Both the position numbers and the translations under genes were made by a program. 8,224 bases of DNA from a virus (lineage: Duplodnaviria; Heunggongvirae; Uroviricota; Caudoviricetes): the IMG/VR virus record IMGVR_UViG_2648501186_000018, positions 1 through 8,224 of that record; one strand, given 5' to 3'. Below, piece after piece: positions 1 to 8,224 of the stretch (position 1 is its first letter; every line of letters begins with the position of its first letter). The notes under the pieces were generated by a model. That model was not told where the DNA came from. It worked only from the letters and a program-made list of their open reading frames with translations, and searched no databases.

Positions 1-837
1 TTACGCCTTCTTTATATCCTCCATAATTTCAGAGTGGGACATATTTGGGACATTATCACCAAAAATGTCGTCTATTTTCCTCGCATGCTCTGTCAAATGA
101 TTAGGCGCAAGGTGAGCATACCTACGAACCATTTCTATGGACTCCCATCCGCCCATTTCCTGAAGCACTGATAATGGGACGCCTGACTGAATCAGCCAGC
201 TTGCCCAGGTGTGTCTGAGGTCATGGAAACGGAAATCTTCAATTCCTGCACGACGACAAGCTGATAGCCATGATGTCTTGCTGTCGATGCGCATCTTCCT
301 GACCGCAGGCGTTGATGTTCCATCTGCTCGCTTAGCCGCCTTGGTATGTACAAACACCCATTTGTGATGCTTGCCTATTTGATCACGCAACACTTTACAG
401 GCGGTATCGTTCAGCGCCACACCAATGGCGCGGTTTGATTTGCTCTCTTCTGGATTCACCCAGGCAACTCGTCGCTGCATGTCGATTTGTTGCCATTCCA
501 GATTTATGATGTTCGACTTTCTCAGACCAGTTGCCAGCGCAAACTTGACGACAGATTTCAGTGGTTCGGGGCACTCATCAATAAGGCGTTTTGCTTCCTC
601 CTTTTCCAGCCATCTGACTCGCTTGTTTCTGACCGCTGGTATCTTGATGACAGGCGCTTTTTCCAGCCACTTCCAGTCGCGTTCTGCAGCACGGAGAATG
701 GCCTTTATCATGGCAAGATGCTTTGCCTTTGTCTGAGTTGATACTGGCTTTGGTTCATAAACAGGCAGTTCTTTACCTTTCCTGATGGCGGCCTGAACTT
801 TCTGTTTCCATATTTCTTTCGTCTTTCTGTTATGCAT
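1..837 (-). CDS. int: Phage tyrosine integrase (DLP12 IntD-like), 5'-truncated. The homologous frame stays open up to 1026 but contains no ATG/GTG/TTG there; the first ATG at 837 gives 278 aa.
   Basis: The translation carries the tyrosine-recombinase C-terminal catalytic region (…[12 protein letters not shown]…[15 protein letters not shown]), with the HxxR box and the catalytic Tyr. Reading the same frame upstream of 837 gives …[55 protein letters not shown], which continues the integrase homology. The frame is closed by TGA at 1027-1029. The ~55 N-terminal residues (arm-binding domain) expected for this family are absent. Confidence 0.85.
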
Positions 838-1026
838 TCTGCTTACAGCAGAGTAAATCTTTGCCTCCGAGATATCTTTAAGCCTTATACCCTCAAAATG
901 TTCAAGCCAGAACTCAATCCGGCTTTTATCTGAATCGAGAGATTTTTTATCAGCTTTTTCCTCAAGCCATCTTAGGCAGGCCTCTTCAAAAGTGACATCA
1001 GGTACGCTGCAGGATAATGTCCGGTA

Positions 1027-1407
1027 TCATGCTGCCACCTTCTGCTCAGTGGCTTTCTGTTTCAGGAATCCAAGAGCTTTCACTGCTTCGGCCTGTGTCA
1101 GTTCTGACGATGCGCGAATGTCGCGGCGAAATATCTGGGAACAGAGCGGCAATAAGTCGTCATCCCATGTTTTATCCAGGGCGATCAGCAGAGTGTTAAT
1201 CTCCTGCATGGTTTCATCGTTAATGGCTTTTTTGCTGGCCCCGTGGCGTTGCAAATGATCGATGCATAGCGATTCAAACAGGTGCTGGGGCAGGCCTTTT
1301 TCCATGTCGTCTGCCAGTTCTGCCTCTTTCTCTTCACGGGCGATCTGCTGGTAGTAACGCGCCCAGCTCTGAGCCTCAAGACGATCCTGAATGTAATAAG
1401 CGTTCAT
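1027..1407 (-). CDS. Chimeric gam'-'bet ORF (126 aa). The first ~60 aa match lambda Gam from its internal GamS start; the last ~65 aa match the C-terminus of lambda Bet. Probable in-frame deletion product.
   Basis: N-terminus [60 protein letters not shown] matches the lambda Gam sequence as I recall it. C-terminus …[64 protein letters not shown] matches the end of lambda Bet as recalled. A strong Shine-Dalgarno AGGAG lies 7 nt upstream of the ATG at 1407. Both matches are from memory and need alignment to confirm. Confidence 0.75.
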
Positions 1408-1482
1408 GGCTGAACTCCTGAAAATGGCTGTGAAAATATCGCCCGCGAAATGCCAGGCTGATTAGGAAAACAGGAAAGGGGA

Positions 1483-1689
1483 TTAGCGATTCAGGCCGTT
1501 ACCGCGTCCGTCGAGAAAAACTTCCACGAGCAAATCACGGGTATAAGTGCGCTCGATGCCGCGATGCAGATAAAGCCGTCCGCGTAAATTAGCTGATGCA
1601 GTCCAGGTACCATCTTTGTGTTTGACCAGCATTCCTGGCATGACCGCACCTCGATTAACGGTCTGCGTTCCGTAATGTTGATGAACCAT
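1483..1689 (-). CDS. kil: Kil-like small protein (68 aa), similar to Rac KilR, a host FtsZ/cell-division inhibitor. The start is assigned to the ATG at 1689; the ORF track extends the frame to a TTG at 1893.
   Basis: An AGGAG Shine-Dalgarno sits 5 nt upstream of the ATG at 1687-1689. The product [68 protein letters not shown] aligns with my recollection of Rac KilR (shared PG…(V/L)xH…GT(W/Y)xASAN…R(K/R)LY…T(F/Y)xxD…(K/E)VFL). It lies immediately upstream of gam in the PL operon, which is the lambda kil position. The KilR match is from memory and needs confirmation. Confidence 0.55.
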
Positions 1690-1910
1690 AAAAACTCCTG
1701 CCCGTAAGCTGGGCTGCTGAACATATAGAGACTTCTGCGCGTATTCAGGCGGTGGATGGCCGCCGGTTGTCATAACTAAGCCGCCTCGTTGAAGCGACTG
1801 AGGTATAAAGTGTTGTGTTGATTTCAGCTGGTCACACCGACGTTCACGCGTCCGTTTCACCCCTCGCACTCCCCGAAGCCTGCTGAAATTCAAACTGCGG
1901 ATCTAAGCGG

Positions 1911-1962
1911 TCATCGCAACGGTGAAACAGGTGGTTACCGTATCGTTGTGTCGTTGCGATGA
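1911..1962 (-). repeat. Perfect 11-bp inverted repeat (TCATCGCAACG … CGTTGCGATGA) with a 30-nt spacer, at the 5' end of the predicted PL transcript.
   Basis: Read directly: 1911-1921 tcatcgcaacg and 1952-1962 cgttgcgatga are exact reverse complements. The spacer contains a second TCGTTG copy that could pair alternatively with the first arm. Confidence 0.7.
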
Positions 1963-1964
1963 AT

Positions 1965-2040
1965 TTATTTAAAACTATAGTTGTTTTATCGTCAACAACA
2001 AAAGTTGTTTTATCGGTTGTTTTAAATATAACTGGTTGTA
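1965..2040 (-). promoter_or_regulatory. PL promoter with OL operators (leftward early promoter).
   Basis: On the minus strand: -35 TTGACG (plus 1990-1995), 17-bp spacer, -10 TTAAAT (plus 1967-1972). The segment GTTGTTGACGATAAAACAACTATAGTTTTAAAT is near-identical to the PR segment GTTGTTGACTAAAAACAACCATAGTTTTAAT at 3514-3544. Operator-like elements: palindrome AACAAC-aaaa-GTTGTT at 1994-2009; GTTGTTTTATCG repeated at 1980-1991 and 2004-2015; further GTTGT copies at 2017-2021 and 2035-2039. Confidence 0.6.
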
Positions 2041-2132
2041 TTTAGGATGGATTTATTTTGTGACTTGCATCGCATAGCGATAACTGAAGTGAGGTGTGGT
2101 GGTTTTTTGGACGGTATGAGTTATGAGGGGGA

Positions 2133-2161
2133 GGAAAAGAAAACCCGGCGCGGTTGCCGGG
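2133..2161 (-). terminator. Rho-independent terminator ending the cI-lipoprotein transcript.
   Basis: GC stem cccggc (2144-2149) / gccggg (2156-2161) with loop gcggtt. On the minus strand it is followed by TTTTCTTTTCC, 9 nt downstream of the lipoprotein stop. Confidence 0.7.
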
Positions 2162-2169
2162 TATGATTA

Positions 2170-2550
2170 TCAGTCAGCCCAACCTGATTTCGAGTTTATT
2201 TGGGTTTCTGACATTGTGTATTTCTTAATCGTGTCATCGTTAAAAAGAATAGTAAGTTCTTTTTTCGTACCGTTCGTTCCGTTATGGAATAATCCATAGA
2301 ATGGAATAAAAGTGGTGCCATTAACTTTTACTTTTGCAAAGGCGTACTTCCAGATCTCCTTTCCACTGTCAGTATATGAAACAGCATCAGGAGAACCAAA
2401 GTAAGATTTAACCTCATTCTTGGTTGTTTTACCTTCCTGAAGTTTAGACTGGACACTAATTTCAGTTTCATTTTTGAGTTGCTGGTTGCCTGAAGAAGCA
2501 CACCCAGCCAATACAGATGCCATCATGGCAGCGATTAGGATTTTTCTCAT
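2170..2550 (-). CDS. Outer-membrane-type lipoprotein (126 aa) of unknown function, encoded immediately downstream of cI in the position lambda uses for rexAB.
   Basis: Signal peptide MRKILIAAMMASVLAGC with lipobox LAGC, and Ala at +2 after the Cys. An RBS GGAAAC precedes the start. The mature part shows a BamE/SmpA-OmlA-like motif pattern (G.T..EV...FG.PD…W.Y.F…LTILFN), which is my inference only. It is flanked by its own terminator and separated from cI by a 229-bp AT-rich spacer. Confidence 0.8.
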   Translation of the reverse strand: MRKILIAAMMASVLAGCASSGNQQLKNETEISVQSKLQEGKTTKNEVKSYFGSPDAVSYTDSGKEIWKYAFAKVKVNGTTFIPFYGLFHNGTNGTKKELTILFNDDTIKKYTMSETQINSKSGWAD

Positions 2551-2779
2551 TTTATGTTTCCATTCATTATAATCAGAAACATCTTAACATAATGATTCGA
2601 AATAAAAACCGCTACGAGATAGGGAGACATTTTGCTGACAGTAGCAACAAATCTCAGCTAACAACGAGAATATTTACTGAAATATGCAAACAGATTTGGC
2701 GTTCTTATAGAGAATTTAGTGCAATATCTAATCCGAGTGGTATAAACCTTAACCTTCGCTCCCTTAAGTCGTAGATAAA

Positions 2780-3469
2780 TTAACCATGCTTCCTGTACGT
2801 CTGCGGCATGCTTCCAATGACCTTACCGAATATGAACACCCGGTTCATCTCGTCTTTCTCGATCGGGTCCCACGGCGAGTAGCTCTTGTTATCAGAGATA
2901 ACCAGCAGCTTATCCTTCATCATTTGAAGACGTTTTACATGGGCAGTGTCGTCGTACAGAAACGCATAGATGCCATCACCGTCGAAAGATTTAACAGTGA
3001 TATCAACGAACAGCAGGTCACCTGGTTCGATCGTCCCTGACATGCTGTCACCTCGCACGTTAATGATGCGGATATTTTCCGCCTTCCTGCCATCGAACAT
3101 GTGACGAGCATCGTCAAACGAGTACTCAACCGAGCGTAGAACTTCTACAAACTCACGGTTGATTACACCTGGCCCGGCACTGACTTCTATATCAAGAACG
3201 TCAATTTTGAAGTATTTGGAATGGCTGACAGTTGATTGTATTGGTTGCACTGTACTGTCTGACATATTTCCAACGCCAGAAGATAACCATTCTGCGCGTA
3301 CACCCAAAGCGTTCGCGATCTCCACGATTTTAGTTGTTTGGTTAGCTTTCCCTGTTTCGATTTTCTGAATAGCAGCCTGGCTAACCCCGACCAAATCCCC
3401 AAGCGCCTTTTGTGTAAGGCCTCGCGCTAATCTGGCTTCTTTAAGTCTTTCTGAGAGTGTTGTTTTCAT
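2780..3469 (-). CDS. cI: CI-type prophage repressor: N-terminal XRE-family HTH plus C-terminal LexA-like S24 autopeptidase domain.
   Basis: HTH region LTQKALGDLVGVSQAAIQKIE. Ala-Gly cleavage site in EVSAGPG. Catalytic Ser in VRGDSM and Lys in HVKRL. It is divergent from cro across an operator region. The mRNA is probably leaderless or nearly so, since the PRM -10 lies about 7 nt upstream of the ATG. Confidence 0.95.
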   Translation of the reverse strand: MKTTLSERLKEARLARGLTQKALGDLVGVSQAAIQKIETGKANQTTKIVEIANALGVRAEWLSSGVGNMSDSTVQPIQSTVSHSKYFKIDVLDIEVSAGPGVINREFVEVLRSVEYSFDDARHMFDGRKAENIRIINVRGDSMSGTIEPGDLLFVDITVKSFDGDGIYAFLYDDTAHVKRLQMMKDKLLVISDNKSYSPWDPIEKDEMNRVFIFGKVIGSMPQTYRKHG

Positions 3470-3475
3470 AGATCA

Positions 3476-3546
3476 AATGTACAACCAAGGTTTTATTTCA
3501 TCAAACGAAAATGGTTGTTGACTAAAAACAACCATAGTTTTAATCT
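3476..3546. promoter_or_regulatory. OR operator region with divergent promoters PRM (leftward, cI) and PR (rightward, cro).
   Basis: PR: -35 TTGACT at 3518-3523, 17-bp spacer, -10 TAATCT at 3541-3546. PRM on the minus strand: -35 TTGATG (plus 3499-3504), 17-bp spacer, -10 TACATT (plus 3476-3481). Perfect 9-bp inverted repeat ATGGTTGTT-N7-AACAACCAT at 3511-3535 overlaps the PR -35. An additional ACAACCA half-site at 3481-3487 overlaps the PRM -10. Confidence 0.7.
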
Positions 3547-3573
3547 TGATTCGGATTAACCACGGAGGTTGTT

Positions 3574-3804
3574 ATGAACCCAGCAATCAAAACAGCGATC
3601 AATATCGTTGGTTCACAAAAGAAACTAGGCGATGCCTGCGAAGTTTCACAGCAGGCCGTCTATAAGTGGCTTCACAACAAAGCAAAGGTATCCCCTGAAC
3701 ATGTCGGCAGCATTGTTACGGCTACTGGTGGAGTTGTGAAGGCATACCAGATTCGCCCGGATCTTCCGAAGTTGTTTCCACACACCGAAAAGAACGCAGC
3801 TTAA
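3574..3804 (+). CDS. cro: Cro-like HTH regulator of the YdaS type (76 aa).
   Basis: First gene downstream of PR and divergent from cI. RBS GGAGG lies 6 nt upstream of the ATG. The family-like pattern AIxxxGSQxxLxxxxxVSQQAVxxW…GGV…RPDL matches the YdaS/Cro family as I recall it. Confidence 0.85.
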   Translation: MNPAIKTAINIVGSQKKLGDACEVSQQAVYKWLHNKAKVSPEHVGSIVTATGGVVKAYQIRPDLPKLFPHTEKNAA

Positions 3805-3816
3805 ATTTCCATTTCA

Positions 3817-3829
3817 CGCTCTTTAACAA
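3817..3829 (+). promoter_or_regulatory. boxA-like element (CGCTCTTTAACAA) in the cro-O spacer, at the nutR position; no convincing boxB hairpin follows.
   Basis: Matches the rrn/lambdoid boxA consensus GCTCTTTAACAA, 13 nt after the cro stop. Downstream there is only an AGTCAATT direct repeat (3847-3854 and 3867-3874), not a GC hairpin. Confidence 0.45.
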
Positions 3830-3873
3830 TAAGCAATCAACTTAACAGTCAATTCAAACTAAAGGAGTCAATT

Positions 3874-5046
3874 ATGCAACCACTTACATACCAACAGACT
3901 AGCGGATTTATTCCGACTGCGGTGATAAATCGTTCTCAAACAAAACAAGCTCCAGGCCACGAAAAAATCCGTGATGCCGTCCGCGCCTGGTCGGCTGTAG
4001 ATAATCAGGATGTCGTTGCCGCACTCATTGTGAATGAGTATCGGGAGCAGGGCGACGGCACCATCGATTTCCCTGATGATGTCAGCCGTGCACGCCAGAA
4101 GCTGTTCCGCTTCCTCGATAACAAATTCGATTCTGAAAAATACCGAAATAACGTGCGTGAACTGACCCCGGCAATTCTGGCGGTACTACCGCTGGAATAT
4201 CGCGGTTACCTGGTTGAGCAGGATAGCTTCATGACTCGGTTGGCCGGATTAACACAGCACCAGCTTCTGGTCTTCCTGGCTGTCATGCGCAAAACATATG
4301 GCTTTAATAAAAGACTGGATTGGGTGAGCAACGAGCAACTTTCCGAATTGACCGGGATATTGCCGCACAAGTGTTCTGCTGCAAAAAGCGTTCTGGTAAA
4401 GCGTGGGATTCTTATTCAGAGCGGGCGAAATATCGGCATTAATAATGTGGTCAGTGAATGGTCAACATTACCCGAATCAGGTAAGAAAAATAAAGTTTAC
4501 CTGAAAGAGGTAAATTTACCTGAATCAGGTAAGAAAAGTTTACCCAAATCAGGTAAAGGCGTTTACCCGAATCAGGTAAACACAAAAGACAAACTAACAA
4601 AAGACAATATAAAACCTTTTTCGTCCGAGAATTCTGGCGAATCCTCTGACCAGCCAGAAAACGACCTTCCTGTGGTGAAACCGGATGCTGCAATTCAGAG
4701 TGGCAGCAAGTGGGGGACAGCAGAAGACCTGACCGCCGCAGAGTGGATGTTTGACATGGTGAAGACCATCGCGCCATCAGCCAGAAAACCGAATTTTGCA
4801 GGGTGGGCTAACGATATCCGCCTGATGCGTGAACGTGACGGACGTAACCACCGCGACATGTGCGTGCTGTTCCGCTGGGCATGCCAGGACAACTTCTGGT
4901 CCGGTAACGTGCTGAGTCCGGCCAAACTCCGCGACAAGTGGACCCAGCTCGAAATCAACCGAAACAAGCAACAGGCTGGCGTGACAGCCGGCAAACCAAA
5001 ACTCGACCTGACGAACACTGACTGGATTTACGGGGTGGATTTATGA
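3874..5046 (+). CDS. O: Replication initiator, lambda O-like (390 aa), with the origin embedded in the gene.
   Basis: The N-terminal domain shares the lambda O signature (LTQHQLLVFLAVMRKTYGFNKRLDWVSNEQLSELTGILPHKCSAAKSVLVKRGILIQ versus lambda O LTKRQFKVLLAILRKTYGWNKPMDRITDSQLSEITKLP…). RBS AAGGAG precedes the start. The gene overlaps P by ATGA and contains the iterons listed separately. Confidence 0.9.
   Translation: MQPLTYQQTSGFIPTAVINRSQTKQAPGHEKIRDAVRAWSAVDNQDVVAALIVNEYREQGDGTIDFPDDVSRARQKLFRFLDNKFDSEKYRNNVRELTPAILAVLPLEYRGYLVEQDSFMTRLAGLTQHQLLVFLAVMRKTYGFNKRLDWVSNEQLSELTGILPHKCSAAKSVLVKRGILIQSGRNIGINNVVSEWSTLPESGKKNKVYLKEVNLPESGKKSLPKSGKGVYPNQVNTKDKLTKDNIKPFSSENSGESSDQPENDLPVVKPDAAIQSGSKWGTAEDLTAAEWMFDMVKTIAPSARKPNFAGWANDIRLMRERDGRNHRDMCVLFRWACQDNFWSGNVLSPAKLRDKWTQLEINRNKQQAGVTAGKPKLDLTNTDWIYGVDL
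4468..4579. repeat. Origin iterons: five 17-bp palindromic repeats TTACC-N7-GGTAA inside the O gene, followed by an A/T-rich stretch (4580-4622).
   Basis: Copies at 4468-4484, 4497-4513 (degenerate), 4516-4532, 4540-4556 and 4563-4579. They are mirrored in the protein as repeated PESGKK/PKSGK motifs. This is the lambda ori architecture, with different iteron sequence. Confidence 0.85.
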
Positions 5047-5744
5047 AAAACATCGCCGCACAGATGGTTAACTTTGACCGTGAGCAGATGCGCCGGATCG
5101 CCAACAATATGCCGGAACAGTACGACGAAAAGCCGCAGGTACAGCAGGTAGCGCAGATCATCAACGGTGTGTTCAGCCAGTTACTGGCAACTTTCCCGGC
5201 GAGCCTGGCTAACCGTGACCAGAATGAACTGAACGAAATCCGCCGCCAGTGGGTTCTGGCTTTCCGGGAAAACGGGATCACCACAATGGAACAGGTTAAC
5301 GCTGGAATGCGCGTAGCCCGTCGGCAGAATCGACCATTCCTGCCATCACCCGGGCAGTTTGTCGCCTGGTGCCGGGAAGAAGCATCTGTTAACGCCGGGC
5401 TGCCAAACGTCAGCGAGCTGGTTGATATGGTTTACGAGTATTGCCGGAAGCGTGGCCTGTATCCGGATGCAGAGTCTTATCCGTGGAAATCGAACGCGCA
5501 TTACTGGTTGGTTACCAACTTGTACCAGAACATGCGGGCCAATGCGCTGGCTGACGCGGAATTACGGCGCAAGGCTGCCGATGAACTGACCTGTATGACA
5601 GCGCGAATTAACCGTGGTGAGACGATACCTGAACCAGTAAAACAACTTCCTGTTATGGGCGGTAGACCTCTAAATCGTGCACAGGCTCTGGCGAAGATCG
5701 CAGAAATTAAAGCTAAGTTCGGACTGAAAGGAGCAAGTGTATGA
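5043..5744 (+). CDS. P: Replication protein P (DnaB helicase loader), nearly identical to lambda P.
   Basis: The 233-aa product MKNIAAQMVNFDREQMRRIANNMPEQYDEKPQVQQVAQIINGV…AKFGLKGASV matches lambda P as recalled, with only a few substitutions. The start overlaps the O stop (ATGA) and the stop overlaps the ren start. Confidence 0.95.
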   Translation: MKNIAAQMVNFDREQMRRIANNMPEQYDEKPQVQQVAQIINGVFSQLLATFPASLANRDQNELNEIRRQWVLAFRENGITTMEQVNAGMRVARRQNRPFLPSPGQFVAWCREEASVNAGLPNVSELVDMVYEYCRKRGLYPDAESYPWKSNAHYWLVTNLYQNMRANALADAELRRKAADELTCMTARINRGETIPEPVKQLPVMGGRPLNRAQALAKIAEIKAKFGLKGASV

Positions 5745-6043
5745 CGGGCAAAGAGGCAATTATTCATTACCTGGGGACGCATAAGAGCTTCTGTGCACAG
5801 GACGTTGCCGCGGTAACAGGCGCAACCGTAACCAGCATAAATCAGGCTGCGGCTAAAATGGCGCGGGCAGGAATCCTGGTCGTTGATGGTAAGGTCTGGC
5901 GAACGGTGTATTACCGGTTCGCTACCAGAGAAGAATGGGAAGGAAAGGTGAGCACGAATCTGATTTTTAAGGAGTGTCGCCAGAGTGCCGCGATGAAACG
6001 GGTATTGAGGGTATATAAAAGAACATCAATGGGAACACAATGA
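5741..6043 (+). CDS. ren: Ren (lambda ren-like; protects against Rex exclusion), 100 aa.
   Basis: MTGKEAIIHYLGTHKSFCAQDVAAVTGATVTSINQAAAKMARAGILVVDGKVWRTVYYRFATREEWEGK… matches lambda Ren as recalled. The C-terminal tail differs slightly. The start overlaps the P stop by ATGA. Confidence 0.9.
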   Translation: MTGKEAIIHYLGTHKSFCAQDVAAVTGATVTSINQAAAKMARAGILVVDGKVWRTVYYRFATREEWEGKVSTNLIFKECRQSAAMKRVLRVYKRTSMGTQ

Positions 6044-6060
6044 TGAAACAGGTGAGTTGA

Positions 6061-6095
6061 GTTCAAACTGTAGTACAATTCTCTCCAGTTTGAAC
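6061..6095 (+). repeat. Perfect 10-bp inverted repeat GTTCAAACTG-N15-CAGTTTGAAC in the emrE 5' leader.
   Basis: Read directly; it lies between the ren stop (6043) and the emrE RBS. No T-tract follows, so it is not a classical terminator. Confidence 0.6.
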
Positions 6096-6110
6096 AGGAA
6101 AGAATATGCT

Positions 6111-6443
6111 ATGAACCCTTATATTTATCTTGGTGGTGCAATACTTGCAGAGGTCATTGGTACAGCCTTAATGAAGTTTTCAGAAGGTTTTACACGGTTA
6201 TGGCCATCTGTTGGTACAATTATTTGTTATTGTGCATCATTCTGGTTATTAGCTCAGACGCTGGCTTATATTCCTACAGGGATTGCTTATGCTATCTGGT
6301 CAGGAGTCGGTATTGTCCTGATTAGCTTACTGTCATGGGGATTTTTCGGCCAACGGCTGGACCTGCCAGCCATTATAGGCATGATGTTGATTTGTGCCGG
6401 TGTGTTGATTATTAATTTATTGTCACGAAGCACACCACATTAA
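6111..6443 (+). CDS. emrE: EmrE small multidrug resistance (SMR) efflux transporter, 110 aa.
   Basis: The product MNPYIYLGGAILAEVIGT.LMKFSEGFTRLWPSVGTIICYCASFWLLAQTLAYIPTGIAYAIWSGVGIVLISLLSWGFFGQRLDLPAIIGMMLICAGVLIINLLSRSTPH matches E. coli EmrE as recalled, with four TM-like hydrophobic segments. The ORF-track start at 6057 is a TTG extension; the real start is the ATG at 6111, preceded by AGGAAAG. Confidence 0.95.
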   Translation: MNPYIYLGGAILAEVIGTALMKFSEGFTRLWPSVGTIICYCASFWLLAQTLAYIPTGIAYAIWSGVGIVLISLLSWGFFGQRLDLPAIIGMMLICAGVLIINLLSRSTPH

Positions 6444-6473
6444 AATAATTTGTTTCTAAACGACTAAAATATG

Positions 6474-6512
6474 GAGGCTCTTATATTTATATGAGCCTCG
6501 TTTTATGCTTTT
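6474..6512 (+). terminator. Rho-independent terminator downstream of emrE.
   Basis: Stem gaggctc (6474-6480) / gagcctc (6493-6499) with a 12-nt AT loop, followed by TTTTATGCTTTTT. Confidence 0.65.
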
Positions 6513-6697
6513 TGTTAATGTCTTTATTTTTTATGTATTCTTTTGTGCTTTCAAGATTATGGCGTAAGAAAATTGCAATACGATTATTGTTGTATATTCA
6601 AGATAATGTGACCTTAATTGTCTTTTTAAATAAAAAATAAACAAAAATTATATCCCACCACTAAGGTTTATAAAAGCATACGTTAGCAGGTGTCACC

Positions 6698-8224
6698 ATG
6701 AAAAAAGCCATAGCATATATGCGATTTTCATCACCAGGTCAGATGTCTGGCGACTCATTAAACCGACAGAGAAGACTTATTGCTGAATGGTTAAAGGTAA
6801 ATAGTGATTATTATCTTGATACCATAACATATGAAGATTTAGGATTAAGTGCATTCAAAGGAAAGCATGCACAATCAGGAGCTTTTTCGGAATTTTTAGA
6901 TGCTATAGAGCATGGTTATATATTGCCAGGAACTACATTGTTAGTTGAAAGTCTGGACAGACTTTCAAGAGAAAAAGTCGGTGAAGCGATTGAACGTCTG
7001 AAATTGATTTTGAATCACGGTATTGATGTTATAACTCTTTGCGACAATACAGTCTATAATATTGGCTCTTTGAATGAGCCATATTCATTAATAAAAGCCA
7101 TACTTATAGCACAAAGGGCAAATGAAGAAAGCGAGATAAAGTCAAGTCGGGTTAAATTATCATGGAAGAAAAAACGGCAGGATGCACTGGAATCAGGTAC
7201 GATTATGACGGCGTCTTGTCCGAGATGGCTCTCCTTAGATGACAAAAGAACGGCTTTTGTTCCAGACCCCGACAGGGTGAAAACTATTGAGCTAATTTTT
7301 AAACTCAGGATGGAAAGGCGCTCATTGAATGCAATAGCCAAGTATTTAAATGATCATGCTGTAAAGAATTTCTCAGGAAAAGAAAGTGCATGGGGACCTT
7401 CTGTAATTGAAAAATTATTAGCGAATAAAGCTCTGATAGGTATTTGCGTACCTTCATATCGTGCAAGAGGGAAAGGGATAAGTGAAATCGCTGGCTATTA
7501 TCCCAGAGTCATATCAGATGATTTGTTTTACGCTGTACAGGAAATTCGGTTGGCACCTTTTGGTATTAGCAATAGTAGCAAGAATCCTATGCTAATAAAT
7601 CTACTTCGAACAGTTATGAAGTGTGAGGCTTGTGGTAATACCATGATTGTTCATGCGGTATCTGGAAGTTTGCATGGCTATTATGTTTGTCCGATGAGAA
7701 GATTACATCGATGTGACAGGCCATCAATAAAAAGAGATTTGGTTGATTATAATATCATTAATGAATTGCTTTTTAATTGTAGCAAAATTCAACCAGTTGA
7801 AAACAAGAAAGATGCTAATGAAACTTTAGAGTTAAAAATTATTGAGCTTCAGATGAAAATTAATAATTTAATCGTTGCATTGTCTGTCGCGCCTGAAGTT
7901 ACCGCTATAGCAGAGAAAATAAGACTATTAGATAAGGAATTACGAAGGGCTTCGGTATCATTGAAAACTTTGAAGAGTAAAGGTGTAAATTCATTCAGTG
8001 ATTTTTATGCTATTGACTTAACCAGTAAAAATGGACGAGAGTTATGCCGTACACTTGCCTATAAAACATTCGAAAAAATCATAATTAATACGGATAATAA
8101 AACCTGTGATATCTATTTTATGAATGGCATTGTTTTTAAACACTATCCTTTAATGAAAGTAATATCCGCCCAGCAGGCGATAAGTGCTCTCAAATATATG
8201 GTTGATGGTGAGATTTATTTCTAA
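6698..8224 (+). CDS. ybcK: Large serine recombinase, YbcK-like (508 aa): resolvase-type catalytic domain, recombinase domain, zinc-ribbon and coiled-coil.
   Basis: N-terminal catalytic motif AYMRFSSPGQ…R with the Ser nucleophile. Cys-rich zinc-ribbon CEACGN…CPMRRLHRC. Coiled-coil segment LELKIIELQMKINNLIVAL. RBS AGGTG lies 6 nt upstream. It follows emrE as in K-12 DLP12 (from memory). Confidence 0.9.
   Translation: MKKAIAYMRFSSPGQMSGDSLNRQRRLIAEWLKVNSDYYLDTITYEDLGLSAFKGKHAQSGAFSEFLDAIEHGYILPGTTLLVESLDRLSREKVGEAIERLKLILNHGIDVITLCDNTVYNIGSLNEPYSLIKAILIAQRANEESEIKSSRVKLSWKKKRQDALESGTIMTASCPRWLSLDDKRTAFVPDPDRVKTIELIFKLRMERRSLNAIAKYLNDHAVKNFSGKESAWGPSVIEKLLANKALIGICVPSYRARGKGISEIAGYYPRVISDDLFYAVQEIRLAPFGISNSSKNPMLINLLRTVMKCEACGNTMIVHAVSGSLHGYYVCPMRRLHRCDRPSIKRDLVDYNIINELLFNCSKIQPVENKKDANETLELKIIELQMKINNLIVALSVAPEVTAIAEKIRLLDKELRRASVSLKTLKSKGVNSFSDFYAIDLTSKNGRELCRTLAYKTFEKIIINTDNKTCDIYFMNGIVFKHYPLMKVISAQQAISALKYMVDGEIYF

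Follow-up and report, generated by a model that had tools for sequence, protein, structure and literature searches.

The BoxA element is by itself enough to recruit NusB–NusE and the rest of the Nus complex at ribosomal RNA (rrn) operons, at suhB, at a parE-like gene of Citrobacter koseri and in CRISPR leaders (PMC5725501, PMC7665894). At suhB it represses translation, after which Rho terminates transcription, and repression persists with up to 100 nucleotides (nt) between BoxA and the Shine–Dalgarno sequence; a search for further sites used the consensus GYTCTTTAANA within 50 nt of a start codon (PMC5725501), and that consensus is used here. In this study we analysed a stretch of 8,224 nt from a tailed-phage record (IMG/VR record IMGVR_UViG_2648501186_000018, positions 1–8,224; hereafter, the window), in which a boxA stands between the early gene cro and the reading frame that follows it. 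Literature searches on boxA, on DLP12 and on lambdoid phages without N turned up nothing specific to a lone boxA. The supplementary table of one study lists a BoxA near ‘cII’ in Escherichia coli S88 and near ‘cI’ in 55989, in each case with 3 nt between the BoxA and the start as annotated (PMC5725501). This distance does not fit the present spacer, which has no start codon 3 nt after boxA.

On balance we favour an explanation in two parts: a private deletion has fused cII to O, and the boxA upstream of the fusion is an orphan nutR-type element that probably still binds Nus factors.

A private deletion fuses cII to O

The open reading frame (ORF) at 3874–5046 (plus strand, 390 amino acids) is not O, but an in-frame fusion of the start of cII to the remainder of O (cII′–′O). 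Pfam places a YdaT_toxin domain at residues 67–143 (PF06254, 3.3e-19), followed at residues 124–196 by a Phage_rep_O match that spans only positions 23–95 of its profile. An earlier note on this DNA, made from the letters alone, had stated that cII is missing and that cro runs straight into O. Both statements fall: a YdaT_toxin domain lies ahead of Phage_rep_O, and a 383-bp deletion fused the two genes.

BLAST searches of phages and complete E. coli genomes recovered relatives without the deletion, PhiR26_1 and E. coli UMNF18, with 100% identity on both sides of an extra 383 bp. The annotation of intact relatives runs from cro over a 69-bp gap to a 179-amino-acid ‘cII / toxin YdaT domain-containing protein’ and a 339-amino-acid O. 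Window positions 3574–4244 correspond to 4675–5345 of the UMNF18 locus (L002), and window positions from 4241 onward to 5725 onward; the junction is a TGGC microhomology at 4241–4244 (plus strand), from which the 383 bp are missing. The deletion, between two TGGC tetranucleotides, joined cII codon 124 to approximately codon 72 of O. In intact relatives, the O frame differs from the cII frame, and the loss of 383 bp restores a single frame. Upstream of the junction (3874–4244, plus strand) lie the first 124 residues of a CII of the YdaT/phi80 type, identical to UMNF18 cII over all 124 amino acids. Downstream of it (4245–5046, plus strand) lies a replication initiator without its first 71 or so N-terminal residues, identical to UMNF18 O from residue 72. 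The intact cII homologue matches phrog_163 (‘CII-like transcriptional activator’, 1.4e-66), and cII has 70% nucleotide identity to the cII of phi80.

The junction is rare. A 50-bp probe centred on it was found in 3 of 5,426 complete E. coli genomes, all of them porcine enterotoxigenic E. coli (ETEC) from one study. None of 80 IMG/VR loci that have the same cro carries the junction, and 73 of the 80 have the intact arrangement.

Alignment to PDB entries 8bt1 and 3c4r puts a POU-like domain at approximately residues 28–115 and helix alpha6 at approximately residues 121–142, just past the junction. In YdaT, this helix forms the tetramer, and a protein of residues 1–96 is monomeric and does not bind DNA (PMC9986795). 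The fusion keeps residues 1–124 of 179, with the POU-like DNA-binding domain retained and the C-terminal tetramer helix lost, and its O part lacks the conserved ‘DLDDGY...’ domain start. Judged from these alignments, the deletion would have removed the oligomerisation helix of CII and the beginning of the origin-binding domain of O, and neither half is expected to function. With both elements gone, lysogeny establishment and replication are probably dead in this copy.

The fusion ORF retains five intact O-type iterons (TTACCYGAATCAGGTAA) at 4468–4584; weak Rfam matches to mir-26 and rliD fall on these iterons and are spurious. An inverted repeat (GATTTAT-N13-ATAAATC, 3905–3931) lies in the first codons of cII, in the region of the lambda CII-binding site. 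As a candidate CII site, it does not rise above chance expectation.

A perfect boxA in the cro–cII spacer

The cro gene (3574–3804, plus strand, 76 amino acids) is of the YdaS/P22-Cro type (Pfam YdaS_toxin, 6.6e-17, and P22_Cro; PHROG transcriptional repressor). It ends at 3804 and the next ORF starts at 3874, which confirms the gap of 69 bp described in the earlier note. This interval (3805–3873, plus strand) is the native cro–cII spacer of this immunity type, and the identical 69 bp separate cro from an intact cII in PhiR26_1 and UMNF18. It is A/U-rich and G-poor (27 A, 21 T, 15 C and 6 G) and unstructured: its RNA has a minimum free energy of −3.6 kcal/mol (RNAfold), and the sole predicted helix is a weak pairing of boxA positions 3818–3824 with 3862–3868.

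A stand-alone BoxA, CGCTCTTTAACAA, occupies 3817–3829 (plus strand); 12 nt separate it from the cro stop codon on its left and 44 nt from the ATG at 3874 on its right. First described as near-consensus, it is an exact match: GCTCTTTAACA at 3818–3828 (plus strand) fits GYTCTTTAANA at every position, and 45 nt separate the end of the 11-nt consensus from the ATG. Even when two mismatches are tolerated, the window has no second match to CGCTCTTTAACAA, and the 48-kb genome of PhiR26_1 has one exact match to the consensus. Because only 11 of 200 shuffles of the window gave any consensus match anywhere, a chance match in the sense strand of a 69-bp spacer is very unlikely. The site would lie approximately 265 nt downstream of the rightward early promoter PR, itself recognized from sequence, in RNA that is predicted to be unstructured. 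It has the features by which stand-alone BoxA elements are searched for: an exact consensus, unpaired, less than 50 nt upstream of a start codon.

Other parts of a lambda-type early circuit are missing from the spacer, as the earlier note had it for boxB. No boxB hairpin was found, and none is possible in an RNA with so few G residues and so weak a fold; the 44 nt between boxA and the ATG hold 5 G, and RNAfold predicts no hairpin there. No intrinsic terminator-like site occurs in the spacer on either strand. The lambda terminator tR1 is Rho-dependent, so the absence of a tR1-like terminator cannot be judged by sequence. The cII and O genes overlap by 4 bp in intact relatives, which leaves no room for an antisense oop RNA.

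The position of boxA near the start of cII brings in an explanation modelled on suhB, in which a boxA–Nus complex limits the access of ribosomes to the cII Shine–Dalgarno sequence and allows Rho-dependent polarity. The nascent RNA would be held on RNA polymerase, and the dosage of the YdaT-type CII would be tuned to host Nus levels. The spacer offers much of what such a device would use. GYTCTTTAANA stands less than 50 nt from the start codon, a spacing well inside the ≤100 nt over which repression survives (PMC5725501). The spacer is also unstructured, with more C than G, like a rut site overlapping BoxA, and the boxA core GCUCUUU can pair with the cII Shine–Dalgarno sequence (AGGAG, 3863–3867, plus strand). 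That pairing is very weak, however, and other immunity types manage without a boxA ahead of the same cII; we consider repression of this kind unlikely.

The spacer also contains repeats of the AATCAA/AGTCAA type. In some loci of the same immunity type (L009, L028 and L034), a 12-bp insertion, ACTGATTAACAG, at window position 3846/3847 duplicates a TTAACAG motif between boxA and the Shine–Dalgarno sequence, and the same loci have a diverged 5′ end of cII. Outside lambdoid phages, the 18-mer TCACGCTCTTTAACAATA (window 3814–3831) recurs exactly in several K1E/SP6-like podophages (K1E, ULINTec4 and Vectrevirus), for the most part in DNA without annotation, which suggests that lone BoxA elements also occur elsewhere in phage DNA that the host polymerase transcribes.

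An early left operon without N

On the leftward side the order is cI, a gene for a BamE-like lipoprotein, the operator and promoter OL/PL, a leader of approximately 270 nt, kil and gam. The inferred PL (TTGACG 1995–1990 and TTAAAT 1972–1967, minus strand) lies among the OL operator repeats and was assigned from sequence by its similarity to the PR region (GTTGTTGAC...AACAAC.ATAGTTTTAA). The untranslated leader (1690–1960, minus strand) has no boxA, boxB or put-like RNA. The first leftward early gene is kil (1483–1689, minus strand; phrog_294), which the Prokaryotic Genome Annotation Pipeline (PGAP) calls as a cell-division inhibitor of 68 amino acids.

The earlier note had found no N-like gene downstream of PL, and a wider search agrees. 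There is none between PL and kil, no ORF in the window has a Pfam or PHROG match to N, and none is annotated in the complete 48-kb PhiR26_1 genome. The one candidate for a hidden N was the upstream part of a 136-amino-acid ORF (1483–1893, minus strand), of which phrog_294 (Kil) matches residues 60–135, with GGAG 5 nt before the internal ATG at 1689. The extension (1690–1893, minus strand) starts with arginine-rich VKRTRERR, and PhiR26_1 annotates it as part of a 125-amino-acid ‘Kil’. We rejected the candidate: across 42 haplotypes, variable sites in the extension are spread 7:5:6 over the three codon positions, compared with 3:6:16 in the kil core, as in non-coding sequence; PHROG matches the Kil part only, and PGAP annotates only the 68 amino acids. 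Haplotypes of the PL leader are at least 96% identical, too uniform for an analysis of covariation.

There is no nutL either, as boxA has no second copy in the window and no exact copy elsewhere in PhiR26_1. Neither the window nor PhiR26_1 has similarity to putL or putR of HK639 or HK022, although putL of HK639 matches HK022 with 79% identity over 56 nt, and Rfam gave no match for such an RNA in the leader. The lineage, its intact relatives included, is without N, boxB, nutL and put-like RNA. PhiR26_1, IdasGreatGrand and other N-less relatives are deposited as complete phage genomes, so the lack of N and boxB, for which the earlier note had offered loss as one of two explanations, is not a sign of decay in this prophage. 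The leader belongs to the N-less backbone and not to the immunity module, because Perceval, a phage of another immunity type, shares it with 97% identity from approximately the start of PL transcription.

A 47-nt element in the leader (1742–1788, minus strand) forms the hairpin GGCGG-CCATCCA-CCGCC. It is 85% identical to a region of HK639 that overlaps an annotated terminator, and its 28-nt core is identical to the phi80 sequence between tL1A and tL1B. A wider stretch of 62 nt (1748–1809) is 81% identical in Enterobacter phage CobraSix. The phage that carries the element here has no known antiterminator.

Phages without N raise the possibility that a lone boxA builds an rrn-like Nus complex by itself. 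In such a case, N-independent antitermination would carry transcription from cII–O–P through Q, in dependence on host NusB/NusE; the earlier note had proposed such a host dependence for O and P as one of its two options. The perfect boxA is placed for this, approximately 265 nt downstream of the inferred PR, and lambda nutR lies at close to that distance from its promoter. These phages have neither N nor a put-like RNA, and PhiR26_1 has at least one convincing intrinsic terminator-like site on the plus strand between ren and Q. Yet the PL operon has no boxA, despite a leader that is homologous to the annotated-terminator region of HK639 and to the tL1A–tL1B interval of phi80. Perceval-type phages have the same right-operon genes and no boxA in the early region examined, and Perceval has the same cII–O–P–ren and kil modules, which weakens the idea that expression of O and P depends on boxA. 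Complexes of the rrn type act mainly on Rho-dependent terminators, and the downstream genes here are translated. Antitermination of this kind is thus an improbable role for the site.

The terminator-like site of PhiR26_1 (L089, 11828–11842, plus strand) consists of ACCGCGTTAAGCGGT followed by seven T residues. A strong promoter-like site lies just upstream of it, at 11738–11767.

boxA travels with cro

The exact 13-mer is present in 78 of 80 and in 119 of 120 loci of the same immunity type. Both sets are nearly clonal, and conservation tried as a test of function was uninformative. One variant, GTTCTTTAACA, still fits the consensus and has exactly the sequence of the suhB BoxA.

Phages with the same downstream genes but another immunity type lack the element. 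The match between Perceval and the window starts exactly at the ATG of cII; cro–cII spacers are 24–30 nt in length in Perceval, phi80, CobraSix and HK639 and 2 nt in mEp237, and no boxA occurs in this gap in any of the five. Because boxA is absent where the same cII–O–P follows a cro of another immunity type, it travels with cro and not with cII–O–P. The earlier note had named an N-like or cII-like gene nearby, or a boxA not conserved in relatives, as findings that would refute it, and this came true by half: a cII-like gene exists, and boxA is kept in relatives of the same immunity but absent from other immunity types. In the short-spacer relatives, a GC hairpin straddles the cro stop codon (L003, approximately 4962–4985; also L004, L005, L091, L007 and L096–L098), with arms GCCGCC/GGCGGC in phi80, GCCGC/GCGGC in Perceval and shorter or variant arms elsewhere; it is absent from the window. 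A match to ‘TTTCACGCTCTTT’ in HK022 is antisense inside the cI gene of that phage and due to chance.

More distant Cro homologues reveal what the position is used for elsewhere. In the Shiga toxin (Stx) phage PA28, whose Cro has 66% amino acid identity, cro is followed by ‘...TAA GTAACAC CGCTCTTTAACA TTGCTGGTCGT TCACC-TCTAACAG-GGTGA’, a canonical nutR, and PA28 encodes an N-like protein with a matching nutL upstream of its gene. In Providencia PSTCR7lys (Cro, 72%), TGCTCTTTAATAA is followed by a GCACA...TGTGC hairpin. In a set of 80 GTDB loci, with each species represented by one genome, cro is followed within 90 nt by a boxA with no more than one mismatch in 19. In 18 of these 19 it lies 7–24 nt after the cro stop codon, and a perfect small hairpin lies just downstream in 13, with imperfect ones in several others. 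The Cro homologues with boxA, among them those of many enterobacterial prophages, are 56–75% identical to that of the window, and in most cases a clear boxB hairpin follows at +2 to +20. From these comparisons, the boxA of the window stands where the wider Cro family has the boxA of nutR; boxA without boxB is peculiar to this immunity type and may have arisen by descent or by recombination. We also considered the spacer as a nutR from which boxB had been cleanly excised, given a by-eye likeness to PSTCR7lys (AATCAA and ACTTAAC), but neither MAFFT nor BLAST supported it.

The nutR position bears on the idea that the match is due to chance, or that the sequence works as DNA rather than RNA, for instance within a leftward PRE-type promoter or as an operator for the YdaT-type CII. 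A DNA role has some basis, in that YdaT of CP-933P protects approximately 95 bp around the ydaS–ydaT junction (PMC9986795), and the spacer has its AATCAA/AGTCAA-type repeats. Chance is excluded by the shuffles and by the position of the site. Full nutR sites at the same place behind homologous cro genes speak for RNA, the minus strand of the spacer showed nothing like a promoter, and a CII operator should travel with cII whereas the spacer travels with cro. We regard this explanation as highly improbable.

Several observations weigh against an orphan nutR-type boxA that still has a function. Its conservation says little, as loci of the same immunity type are 97–100% identical overall, and variants in boxA are approximately as dense as in the rest of the spacer. 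They include one A-to-G change and TCTCTTTAACA, in which T replaces G at the site altered by boxA5 in lambda, a mutation that weakens NusB binding (PMC2800207). Perceval, 4A7 and similar phages share the cII–O–P–ren and PL leader–kil modules, and Perceval has no boxA in the approximately 10.8 kb of early region examined. The closest relatives of Cro (79–87% amino acid identity; Klebsiella ST101-KPC2phi6.1, K. grimontii, Kosakonia and Enterobacter) have short spacers without boxA. BLAST found nothing beyond boxA itself alike between the spacer and any nutR.

These points lead to the most serious alternative, that boxA is a pure relic, left over from a nutR or brought in by recombination, which influences neither transcription nor translation in any phage or prophage that has it. 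A relic would account for the absence of N, boxB and nutL, for sister phages that do without boxA and for natural variants that break the consensus (in L034 and in one locus of the 120-locus set); with diversity this low, perfect conservation carries no weight against it. What speaks against a relic is that a consensus BoxA alone is enough for Nus recruitment elsewhere (PMC5725501, PMC7665894) and that the site is perfect and its RNA unstructured. We judge a relic to be a real possibility, though the less probable one.

A decaying DLP12 prophage

The window is the DLP12 cryptic-prophage locus of porcine ETEC-type E. coli and adjoins an Arg-tRNA gene and fimZ, which we take to mark the DLP12 site. 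It differs from ETEC4073 by 1 mismatch in 8,224 bp, and at least 80% of the region is covered at a place in 1,477 of the 5,426 complete E. coli genomes, approximately a quarter. At this locus int, bet, gam and ybcL are partial, and cII and O are both damaged. Within 1–1407, int lacks its N terminus and PGAP annotates partial Bet and Gam genes; an ORF of 126 amino acids (1027–1407) has the first 64 residues of Gam, followed by other sequence. With the truncations of int, Gam and Bet, this DLP12 copy has suffered additional deletions in its PL operon. Given these partial genes and the rarity of the cII–O junction, the prophage is decaying and has a private deletion. The suggestion of the earlier note that the circuitry has been lost and boxA left as a relic therefore holds in part: the prophage is in decay, with int, bet and gam truncated and cII and O damaged, but the DNA-binding domain of cII is still encoded.

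The immunity region has been kept. The cI repressor (2780–3469, minus strand; helix–turn–helix and S24 peptidase domains, Pfam HTH_3 and Peptidase_S24) is divergent from cro. Between them, OR includes a perfect palindrome of 25 bp (3511–3535, plus strand) that overlaps the inferred PR (TTGACT 3518–3523 and TAATCT 3541–3546, plus strand), a promoter predicted from sequence. Downstream of the fusion, the replication protein P is encoded at 5043–5744 (plus strand; Pfam Phage_lambda_P, 1.9e-61). The gene for the BamE-like lipoprotein (phrog_3135; 2143–2550, minus strand) is inserted where lambda has rexAB, between cI and OL/PL, and has a strong intrinsic terminator of its own at 2162–2143; it is probably a lysogenic-conversion moron.

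A possible role for the lone boxA

The explanation that we favour takes boxA to be an orphan nutR-type element that travels with this immunity module. In intact relatives it probably binds NusB–NusE, as its consensus and unpaired context lead us to expect, and would load them onto RNA polymerase together with NusA, NusG and SuhB. The effect would be one of modulation and not of need, given that the PL operon lacks a boxA and that sister phages with the same downstream modules do without one. It might be some resistance to Rho or a suhB-like damping of cII translation. In the window itself boxA is presumably without consequence, since the downstream genes are damaged and the prophage is likely to be repressed.

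A bolder possibility, which we hold only tentatively and think somewhat unlikely, is that a lone BoxA of the rrn type acts as a purely host-driven Nus switch in phages that lack N and boxB (PhiR26_1, IdasGreatGrand and DLP12-like prophages). It would make the PR operon resistant to Rho without a phage antiterminator, or it would tie CII synthesis and the lysis–lysogeny decision to the availability of Nus factors.

For annotation, ORF 3874–5046 should be described as a cII′–′O fusion, not as a “replication protein”. The odd gene order is ordinary in origin, a private deletion in what is probably a dead prophage. What is left is that widespread lambdoid phages with no N, boxB or put RNA have a single perfect BoxA in their early right transcript, which bears on how N-less lambdoid phages get early transcription past terminators. 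If functional, a lone phage BoxA would add to the few non-ribosomal targets of the Nus factors: suhB, a ParE-like toxin gene and CRISPR leaders.

Comparison with known systems

The chromosomal site by the Arg-tRNA gene and fimZ, and the ren–emrE–ybcK genes, are those of DLP12 in E. coli K-12. The copy in the window differs in that it keeps cI, cro, OR and OL and has private deletions of its own, whereas the K-12 prophage has presumably lost its immunity region.

In its place just downstream of cro in the PR transcript, and in its boxA sequence, the site resembles a lambda-type nutR. It differs in having no boxB hairpin, N gene or nutL; N-dependent antitermination is therefore impossible here, and this is not a lambda-type nut site. 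HK639 is likewise N-less, with a homologous Cro (63% amino acid identity), a phi80/YdaT-type cII and a kil module. Unlike HK639 and HK022, which have put RNAs, neither the window nor PhiR26_1 contains a putL- or putR-like sequence.

The cro gene is of the YdaS type and the gene after the spacer belongs to the YdaT family (PF06254 and phrog_163), as in the YdaS/YdaT pairs of CP-933P and Rac and in the cII of phi80. In contrast to those proteins, the CII of the window stops at residue 124, is fused to O and lacks the tetramerising helix.

The stand-alone BoxA elements of rrn leaders, the 5′ untranslated region of suhB, C. koseri CKO_00699 and CRISPR leaders share with this site an exact consensus in a single-stranded context that needs no phage factor, and the suhB BoxA also shares its placement within 50 nt of a start codon (PMC5725501). 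The site in the window differs from them in that it belongs to an early operon of a phage, with a translated gene on either side, and is absent from sister phages.

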